Shown: one piece after another, positions 20,339 to 23,900 of the stretch
Layout: each line of letters begins with the position of its first letter
Position numbering within the stretch: position 1 is the first letter of the stretch
Assembly (NCBI GenBank): GCA_964016885.1
Contig: OZ024755.1
Span: 4,464,001 to 4,528,000 of the forward strand
Direction: 5' to 3'
Source: Eledone cirrhosa
Taxonomy: Eukaryota
Length of the DNA stretch: 64,000 nt
Notes under the pieces: generated by a model
Database searches by the model: none
The model's input: the letters and a program-made list of their open reading frames with translations, nothing else
What the model was told of the DNA's origin: nothing
Position numbers and translations under genes: made by a program

Positions 20339-20914
20339 ATGGAGAAAGATAACACCATGGAGAAGGACTGCACCATGGAGAAAGACTACACCATGGGGAG
20401 GGAAAACGCCATGGAGAAAGACTACACCATGGGGAGGGAAAACGCCATGGATAAGGACTGCACCATGGGGAGGGAAAACGCCATGGAGAAAGACTGCACC
20501 ATGGGGAGGGAAAACACCATGGGGAGGGAAAACGCCATGGAGAAGGACTGCACCATGGGGAGGGAAAACGCCATGGAGAAAGACTGCACCATGGGGAGGG
20601 AAAACACCATGGGGAGGGAAAACGCCATGGAGAAGGACTGCACCATGGGGAGGGAAAACGCCATGGAGAAGGACTGCACCATGGGGAGGGAAAACGCTAT
20701 GGAGAAGGACTGCACCATGGGGAGGGAAAACGCCATGGAGAAGGACTGCACCATGGGGAGGGAAAACGCCATGGAGAAGGACTGCACCATGGGGAGGGAC
20801 TACAGCTTTGAGAAGAACAACACCATGGGGAAATACTACAGTTTGGAGAAGAACAACACCATGGGGAAGGACAACACCATGGGGAAAGACTACAGTTTGG
20901 AGAAGAACAGTAAT
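20339..20914 (+). repeat. 18/36-bp in-frame tandem repeat (32 x 18 nt)
   Basis: ACCATGGGGAGGGAAAAC / GCCATGGAGAAGGACTGC alternating; encodes [12 protein letters not shown] hexads in frame with the GST domain. Confidence 0.95.
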
Positions 20915-23900
20915 AAAAGGGTCACCTATAATTTATATTACTTTCATGGCCGCGGTCGTGCTGAGATCTGCCGTCTACTATTTGCTGCAGCTGGGGTCCA
21001 GTTTATTGATTCTAGAGTTCAATACTCACAATGGAACAATTTCAAAAACAGTTAGTAATATTTTATTCAGCTTTATGATTTCACCTCCTGCACTCGCTCT
21101 GTCTCCTGCACCTCCTGTACTTACTGCACCTCCTGTATTTACTGCACCTCCTGTAATTACTGCTCCTACTGCACCTCCTGTACTTACTGCACCATAGTAT
21201 TTACTGCACCACCTGTAATTACTGCTCCTACTGCACCTCCTATACTTACTGCACCCTCTGTGCATCATGTACCTCGTGCACCTGCTGAGCATCTTGCACC
21301 TTCTGAAACTACTGCACCCCCCCCCCCCCCCCCCTTGCTCTTACTGCAACTCCTGCGCTGTCAAATATCTTATCTCATCACATTTTATACCGCAATATCA
21401 CATGTTATCACATTTTATACCACAATATCGTATCTTATCACATTTTATACCACAATATCGTATCTTATCACATTATATACCACAATATCACATGTTATCA
21501 CATTTTATATCACATTATCGCATGTTATCACATGTTATCACAGTTTATACCACAATATCACATTTCGTTTTCACATGTTATGCCACAATATCACATTTTA
21601 TACCACGATACCACATGTTATCACATTTTATACCACAATATCGTATCTTATCACATTTTATATCAAATTATCGCATGTTATCACATGTTATATCATGTTA
21701 TCACAGTTTATACCACCATATCACATGTTATTATCACATTTTATACCACAATATCACATGTTACATTTTACACCACAATATCACATGTTACATTTTACAC
21801 CACAATATCACATGTTATTATCACATTTTATACCACGCTATCACATGTCTCATTTTATACCACAATATCACATGTTATTACATTTTATACCACAATATCG
21901 TATGTATTCCCATTTCAGAGATGCACCTCTCCACTCTCCCAGTTCTACTGATTGACGGCAAGACAGAGATACCCCAAAGTATGGCCATTGCTAGGTACCT
22001 TGCCAGGGAGTTCGGTGAGTTACTTACTACACTCAGAGATTGAGAGATGGTTGGATAGATAGGTAGGCTGGTTGGTAGGCAGGTAAGTAGATAGGTAGGT
22101 TGGTTGGTAGGCAGGTAAGTAGATAGATAGGTAGGCTGGTTGGTAGGCAGGTAAGTAGATAGATAGGTAGGTTGGTTGGTAGGCAGGTAAGTAGATAGAT
22201 AGGTAGGCTGGTTGGTAGGCAGGTAAGTAGATAGATAGGTAGGCTGGTTGGTAGGTAGGTAAGTAGATAGATAGGTAGGTTGGTTGGTAGGCAGGTAAGT
22301 AGATAGATAGGTAGGCTGGTTGGTAGGCAGGTAAGTAGATATATAGGTAGGTTGGTTGGTAGGCAGGTAAGTAGATAGATAGGTAGGTTGGTTGGTTGGT
22401 AGACAAATAATATTCAGTAAGGGTTACATGAATATATACATCTCTCCCCCTCTCTCTCTCTCTCTCTCTCTCTCTCTCTCTCTCTATATATATATATATA
22501 TATATATATATATATATATATATATATATATATATATATATATAACTCACACATGTGTAAAAATAATTAATAATTTCAATTTTGCAGGTTTCCATGGCAA
22601 GACCAATTTAGATATGGCTCAAATAGAAGTTATCTGTGATTGCCTTAATGATATCTTGGACGACTATCTAAGGTTGTATTATGAGAAAAACCCGAACAAG
22701 AAGGTAATGTTTAAATCATCATCACTGTCATCATCATCACCATCACCAGAAAGATTTTATAAGGCATATATTTAACAATTTATTCATCCAAACACAAATT
22801 TCCCAGTTTGTTTGATTGTTCATATATCCACTAATCCTGGTATATATGACAGCACTGGTCCACTAGTCTTGGTATATATGACAGCACTGGTCCACTAGTC
22901 TTGGTATATATGACAGCACTGGTCCACTAGTCTTGGTATATATGACAGCACTGGTCCACTAATCCTGGTATATAAGACAGCACTGGTCCACTAATCTTGG
23001 TATATATGACATACTAATCCTGGACTCCCCAAATTACATATATTCAACATTATTGGTGTCATTATTGATACTGCCAATCCACCACCCAATATTTAGAGCA
23101 GTGGATTGGCAGTATCGGTAGAGGGTTGGACGCCATGCTTTCCAGCATAGTTACGTCCCTTTACGATCTGAGTCCAAATCTCGTCGAGGTTAACTTTGCC
23201 TTTCATCCTTACGGGGGTCGATAAAATAAAGTACCAGTAATACACTGGGATAATTTCTGGCCTTGTGCCAAAAGTAGAAACAATTATTGACGGTGCTGGT
23301 CCACTGTAAATGACAAACGGTCCCAATATAGAATAGAAACCCTGATATATAGTTTATTTCCCTGACACTCTTACAATCGAGTCATATTAGACACACTTTC
23401 TATAGAATATCGTTTCCACTTCATTTACTTCAGGCTACACTGCGTGACCGCTACAATGAGACATGTCGAAAGATACTCCCTTTTCTTGAAAAGACGCTAC
23501 ATCAATGCAACAATGGTGCAAAATATTTCTTTGGAGAACAGGCAAGTTGATTATTCTATACCTACCAATCTATACACATACAGACTCTACCCCCCTTCCC
23601 CCCTTCCCTCCACACACACACACACACACACACACATATATATATATATATATATATATATTTTGTAGAATAATTAAAAACATTTTAAAGTATTGTGAAG
23701 AAGTACAATAAAGAGAGATTGTCTGCCTGAATTATTTATAGAAATATTAGAAAATATATGTATGTATATATATATATATGTGTGTATGTATTTATGTATG
23801 TATGTATATACATATATATATATATATATATATATATATATATATATATATATATGTGTGTGTATGTATGTATATACATATATATATATATATATATATA

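Follow-up and report, generated by a model that had tools for sequence, protein, structure and literature searches.

An in-frame array of 18-nt units stands before the lost start codon of a loop-less S-crystallin-like gene in Eledone cirrhosa and may encode an N-terminal arm

The window analyzed in this study, 64,000 nucleotides of an Eledone cirrhosa contig (OZ024755.1, positions 4,464,001 to 4,528,000), contains an S-crystallin-like gene of five coding exons on its plus strand. The GST N-terminal part of exon 1 (20918..21050, followed by a GTTAGT donor) has its best PDB match in 5b7c (S-crystallin OctvuS4, E 3.6e-12). Exon 2 (21919..22014) has 96 nt, the same as in the paralogs; exon 3 (22588..22703) carries Leu100, Asp101 and Tyr108 and ends EKNPNKK; exon 4 (23434..23541) and exon 5 with the stop codon (25663..25827) complete the gene. 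The 205 core codons contain no stop and no frameshift, and the four introns have GT/GC-AG ends, with three GT donors, one GC donor and AG acceptors. The GC-AG intron has its GCAAGT donor at 23542-23547, after exon 4, where the neighbouring paralog has GT. Pfam GST_N and GST_C_3 matches were obtained on single exons, each slightly below gathering score. The core sequence groups among S-crystallins in the tree, its best solved relative being OctS4, and its Met content is 2.9%. Arg14, Gln64 and Ser65 of the glutathione (GSH) site are present, as is Tyr8, which we take to belong to the same site; the Leu100/Asp101 residue numbering was checked on paralog translations. The alpha4-alpha5 insertion is absent, helices 4 and 5 being spaced by 23 compared with 33, 38 and 129 in three other S-crystallins. 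An earlier sequence-only reading had described an S-crystallin-like gene without the central loop, and this spacing and the 205-residue core bear it out.

The gene adjoins two sigma-GST enzyme-type genes, which lie directly upstream on the opposite strand (C15 about 4445000-4460460, minus strand). Enzyme-type and loop-less crystallin-type genes thus stand together in a small locus, apart from the main cluster of ~30 on C12. A neighbouring loop-less S-crystallin-like gene (30978-41104, plus strand) has Cys100/Asn101, closer to the SL11 pattern. Its exon 2 (38033-38129) measures 97 nt against 96 in the paralogs, a +1 frameshift near 38066, and the gene may be a pseudogene, an allele or an assembly error. 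Elsewhere in the window, two ORFs at 14704-15630 (minus strand) are split by one stop, and the downstream one matches GIY-YIG endonuclease (E 5e-5); they are presumably a fragment of a Penelope-type retroelement. There is also a 352-nt inverted repeat, at 12487-12838 and 13620-13971, with copies 99% complementary and 781 nt apart.

Upstream of the GST part lies a hexapeptide array (20339..20914, plus strand) of 32 x 18 nt, separated from the GST domain by four non-repeat codons (KRVT). Our recount agrees with the sequence-only reading that its 576 nt run in frame into the GST part with no indel and no GST-frame stop, and that 29 of the 32 hexads begin with Met and 10 contain Cys. The description of "exact 18-nt units" holds for length, but the units are not identical in sequence (TRF period 36, 15.5 copies, 87% matches). 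The commonest hexads are MGRENA (10 times) and MEKDCT (nine times), and 28 of the 29 in-frame ATGs have a purine at -3 and G at +4. The array is homogeneous in its middle, with 36-nt copies that differ at 1-2 of 36 bases, and its 3′ end consists of older, diverged units, three 36-nt copies differing at 5-8 of 36 bases with the frame kept. Since these older copies have diverged and are still in frame, the replaced start is probably not brand new.

An open frame in such a repeat proves little. The array itself is open in three of its six frames, a fixed frame of the shuffled 36-nt unit was stop-free in 65% of 20,000 trials, and among 39 tandem arrays in 296 kb of the E. cirrhosa genome (this one included) 59 of 234 frames were stop-free. 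The open frame is therefore weak evidence that chance can explain, unlike the lost start and the fact that the array is unique. The array DNA has a single match in the 3-Gb genome, all 12 genome matches of a 19-mer taken from it fall within the array, and among 150 scored candidates no translated match above 45% was found elsewhere in the genome. A tandem repeat at C14:15605900-15629700 (minus strand), with an open frame of 3593 codons, matches the array weakly (35-40%). Contigs of two public runs, both from one sample that is perhaps the assembly's own, matched 20082-20402 without any difference, and over 20770-21428 one run was identical and the other differed by one additional C in a run of C within the intron; these contigs cover both ends of the array but do not cross its middle. 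Both runs behave as genomic DNA, reading through the donor into intron 1 without the 21050-21919 joint, and so say nothing on expression.

At the position where all 29 fetched paralogs (of the 38 other genome matches to this exon, 39 in all) read ATG CCN NNN TAY, this gene reads AGG GTC ACC TAT, with AGG GTC (20918..20923, plus strand) in place of the family's ATG CCN start. The absence of the MPxY start reported from the sequence alone is thus confirmed. The contrast had been drawn with the paralog at 30978, and it holds across the 29 paralogs, although that yardstick itself carries the exon 2 frameshift. Among 1.84 billion representatives, the closest GST-side match is Octopus sinensis XP_036359020.1 (P0017), annotated as "S-crystallin 3-like". 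In a search of the genome with this protein, the present gene ranks first for exons 1 and 3 and has the highest identity for exon 2, which makes the two reciprocal best matches over exons 1-3, and they form one clade with support 99/99 in a tree of exons 1-3. That tree kept 15 of 21 genomic candidates; three that were not reconstructed, the frameshifted neighbour and two enzyme-type GSTs were dropped. The O. sinensis protein resembles this gene in an exon-3 end without the loop and differs in starting MPTYNL, its annotation showing no N-terminal extension; beyond exon 3 its model no longer follows the family alignment, and the comparison covers exons 1-3. Since the orthologue starts MPTYNL, the start change is lineage-specific, from an ancestor with a normal start.

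Identity between the two is 85/108, compared with 92/110 for a control orthologue pair, and the orthologue has the same residue at Tyr8 and at 13 of the 14 positions that Tan 2016 links to GSH binding or activity. The branch to this gene is 0.22 vs 0.11 to XP_036359020.1, which may indicate relaxed selection. In exons 1-3 this gene departs from 5 of 40 family-conserved columns (one further row being dropped for an unsure boundary), three of them at columns where the orthologue departs too, and the new changes are M1R and N10H. The core is thus still conserved, though perhaps evolving faster. In dN/dS comparisons with 13 paralogs the synonymous sites are saturated (pS 0.74-0.96) and of no use for dating.

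The best TATA-like site upstream of the gene, GAATATAACC (19389..19398, plus strand), is the likely promoter. Scored with a matrix built from 28 paralog boxes, it is the top site in 19335-20926, at 6.8 vs a paralog leave-one-out range of 1.2-14.5; it is not a strict TATAWAW match, and TATA-like motifs are common in AT-rich background (210 of 580 60-nt slots). In 28 of 29 paralogs a TATA-like box stands 57-188 nt (median 120) above the ATG, and without the repeat block 19468-20908 the box at 19389 would sit ~86 nt above the old start, inside that range. A weaker alternative, TATTTTAAA (20302..20310, plus strand), stands 37 nt before the first array ATG. It is the only T-rich run in the AAC-rich tract described below and falls outside the top six matrix sites; the ranking did not bear it out as the ancestral TATA. 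From the positional clustering of paralog boxes, as distinct from mapped starts, the GST N-terminal exon is probably exon 1; for squid SL11 and SL20, the accessible text of PMC5737492 gives promoters with a TATA box and mapped starts. If it is exon 1, no acceptor is expected before the GST domain. The lack of a pyrimidine-rich acceptor there had been pointed out before and is real (3 T in the 20 bases ahead of the AG at 20919 vs 7-17 in 34 real acceptors), but it is no evidence in itself, since the exon looks like exon 1.

Between this likely promoter and the array there is an upstream ORF of 41 codons, MATCSGSERYNNN... (19441..19566, plus strand), out of the GST frame and possibly a former protein start. 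Its ATG, in a weak start context (T at -3), is the only one between about 19420 and the array, and every ATG between 19442 and the GST part lies in the array and in frame (29/29). The box at 19389 places this ORF in the message, where it could silence the gene. A stop so far above four exon junctions is a decay signal if the ORF is translated. From 19468 to 20338 (plus strand) extends an AAC-rich degenerate repeat tract with 6-9% T, no ATG and 11 phase runs. Its phase shifts 10 times over 870 nt, against no shift in the 576 nt of the array, and it holds an in-phase stop. The tract is not one coding frame today; several shifted stretches were confirmed letter for letter in the public contigs, and the shifts were spread by duplication and are not independent events. 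One contig of run X1 has C>T at 19819, a possible allele. In its own phase the tract gives Asn/Asp/Lys/Val-rich pieces ending FKDNT (triplets 96% purine-first, 78% C-last), and this end resembles an array unit one base out of frame. The genome abounds in AAC tracts of this kind (depth above 10,000). The pattern is compatible with a longer arm that may once have started at 19441 and decayed once the array gave nearer starts; plain microsatellite decay is the alternative reading.

If translated, the arm would have 193 residues (22 kDa, pI 4.8), 40% of them charged, with a net charge of -0.06 per residue, 15% Met, 5% Cys and 3.6% aromatic residues. It falls on the disordered side of the charge-hydropathy line. 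Two single-sequence structure models (pLDDT 30.6 and 34.6) gave the arm no fold, and did not recover the GST part either. The arm is predicted to be disordered, as the sequence-only reading had proposed, and would be the likeliest product if the gene is expressed. The further suggestion of a "sticky" crystallin fits poorly with 3.6% aromatics and a charge-patterning kappa of 0.03, at which charges are very evenly mixed. Evenly mixed charges favour an expanded soluble coil over a sticky one. Nor is a refractive role supported: the computed dn/dc of the arm is 0.1925, below that of the core (0.1948) and of every paralog segment (exons 1-3 of 14 paralogs, 0.1975-0.2032, with this gene lowest at 0.1966). 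Of the residue values behind these figures, those of Arg and Lys were checked in PMC11118217, where Met and Cys are described as raising refraction in vertebrate crystallins. The Met and Cys of the arm do not outweigh its lack of aromatics for refraction. Overall, the gene type, the loop loss, the lost start and, if the gene is expressed, the in-frame arm of the sequence-only reading stand and its stickiness and optics find no support; the likely promoter at 19389 and the ORF at 19441 had been missed.

The reading we favor, at a probability of roughly 45%, is that the array, a repeat amplified locally in what is likely exon 1, supplies start codons for a protein of ~398 residues (array plus core), in which a 193-residue arm predicted to be disordered precedes a normal GST core. 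It is favored because the core is undamaged and needs a start, and the array ATGs are the only in-frame ones available. A unit (…AACACC ATG G…) that resembles the family's own AAC-rich start context (ACC precedes the paralog start in 16/29) would have been duplicated, giving an upstream in-frame start and freeing the old Met-Pro codons. The older 36-nt copies would have diverged, and a recent burst of copying would have followed. Transcription would begin from the box at 19389 (or 20302), ribosomes would pass the weak upstream ORF by leaky scanning or re-initiate after it, and translation would begin at the ATG at 20339 or 20357. Dimerisation and glutathione binding by the core would persist, with little transferase activity, and the two arms would serve as soluble spacers of evenly spread charge, able through their 29 Met and 10 Cys to take up oxidants or form disulfides; tolerance of such an arm is likelier than selection for optics. 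Against this reading, the best promoter candidate puts the out-of-frame ORF first, unlike 27 of 28 paralogs, which have no ATG between box and start. Both TATA-like boxes are imperfect, open frames are common in such repeats, and the branch is twice that of the orthologue.

Doubtful, though to be taken seriously, is a decaying or silent gene, in which the expanding repeat of exon 1 has disrupted both the old start and the promoter spacing, the array is a neutral minisatellite in frame by chance, the message is either unmade or degraded once the upstream ORF has been read, and only the recency of the loss has left the core intact. The repeat-rich genome (167 TRF rows in the window alone), the stop-free frames of shuffled units and other tandem arrays, the imperfect boxes, the upstream ORF, the longer branch and the frameshift in the neighbouring paralog all fit decay; the 205 codons and eight splice sites without a disabling change do not, and the older units, diverged yet in frame, suggest that time has elapsed since the start was replaced. 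Transcription might otherwise begin within the array or close to its 3′ end, leaving only the ATGs at 20825, 20861 and 20879 in use, with an arm of 13-31 residues and the rest as promoter-side repeat. This would keep the leader near the family's usual length, and the three ATGs are in strong context. We consider it quite improbable, since no TATA-like or acceptor-like site was found inside the array, where the best matrix score is 3.0, and any start further up meets an in-frame ATG first.

The whole repeat block could also be an intron, with the ATG at 19441, a donor at 19467 and the AG at 20919 as acceptor yielding a near-normal GST, and the join is indeed in frame with its ATG 50 nt below the best box. 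That fit is at chance level, however, since 19 of the 63 GT-AG pairs that these spans offer would likewise join in frame; the acceptor scores -5.3, under all 34 real ones (lowest -4.3, median 11.3), and the donor is outside the top six GT sites, which makes this reading very unlikely. An assembly artefact, with the array or junction mis-joined or the copy number wrong, is scarcely credible: the lack of any public contig across the array middle would allow it, but both array ends and the GST junction were matched without substitutions in two runs, and the unit exists only at this locus.

Returning to the translated arm, a bolder version of it strikes us as unlikely. It would have a 22-kDa arm built in an octopod lineage from the gene's own start-codon context by tandem copying, with the start moved more than once (from MPxY, possibly to the ATG at 19441 with an Asn-rich arm, to the array), and selected as a redox-active, disulfide-linkable spacer. 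Each dimer would carry two such long arms, which would take the place of the central loop as a handle for assembly and might fold as a beta-solenoid on oxidation or metal binding. The role of the loops in lens assembly is one we assume for S-crystallins. If the array is translated, the locus shows cleanly how the copying of a start codon can turn a 5′ leader into new protein sequence, the orthologue preserving the "before" state, and it makes it simple to test whether arms outside the loop are tolerated or used by S-crystallin dimers. A silent gene would be an ordinary instance of a member of a large gene family decaying through its repeats. Either way it is a real lineage-specific oddity within the known S-crystallin family.

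No long N-terminal arm on an S-crystallin was found among the database proteins or the literature searched, the supplements of which may hold gene lists. An exon-alignment search among proteins of 386-2000 residues gave five matches in 8000 scored candidates, all from non-cephalopod animals by source name, which is weak evidence, and word-index protein searches (the ORF; residues 193-237) gave no match and carry no weight, since relatives exist. For the repeat, the Pfam RtxA_C score adds up weak repeat matches, no single stretch of which passes by itself, other protein matches (19-49% identity) are unrelated low-complexity proteins, and the best ESM Atlas scores (0.80 and 0.89) are leads only. 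With the left-handed beta-helix hexapeptides (PF00132) the array shares a six-residue period and G/E/D at the second position, and a true member, P0052, matches it (E 5e-8), but no Pfam Hexapep match was obtained on the array itself. The strict motif, which we take to be [LIV]-[GAED]-x2-[STAV]-x, fits one of 32 units, or 11 of 32 if Met and Cys are allowed.

Among S-crystallins, variable sequence is described at the helix 4-5 loop in the accessible text of PMC4976375, the source of the following comparisons as far as that text goes. The long-loop OctS4 (5b7c) has Arg14, Gln64, Ser65, Leu100 and Asp101 in common with this gene and differs in its loop, absent here, where the added sequence is N-terminal; Tyr97, Met104 and Gln108 of OctS4 are Asn97, Leu104 and Tyr108 in this gene. 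For want of the loop, and by analogy with the mutants in that text, we infer that the core would bind GSH weakly and have low transferase activity, which Tyr108 perhaps raises. The Phe98/Asn99/Val102/Phe106-type pocket of active sigma-GSTs is absent, the residues here being Leu100, Asp101, Leu104 and Tyr108. The short-loop SL11, LopS4 and Cry9 lack the loop by description, as here, and keep Phe100/Asn101, whereas this gene has the derived state, Leu100/Asp101. Derived residues without a loop form a mix that differs from both groups.
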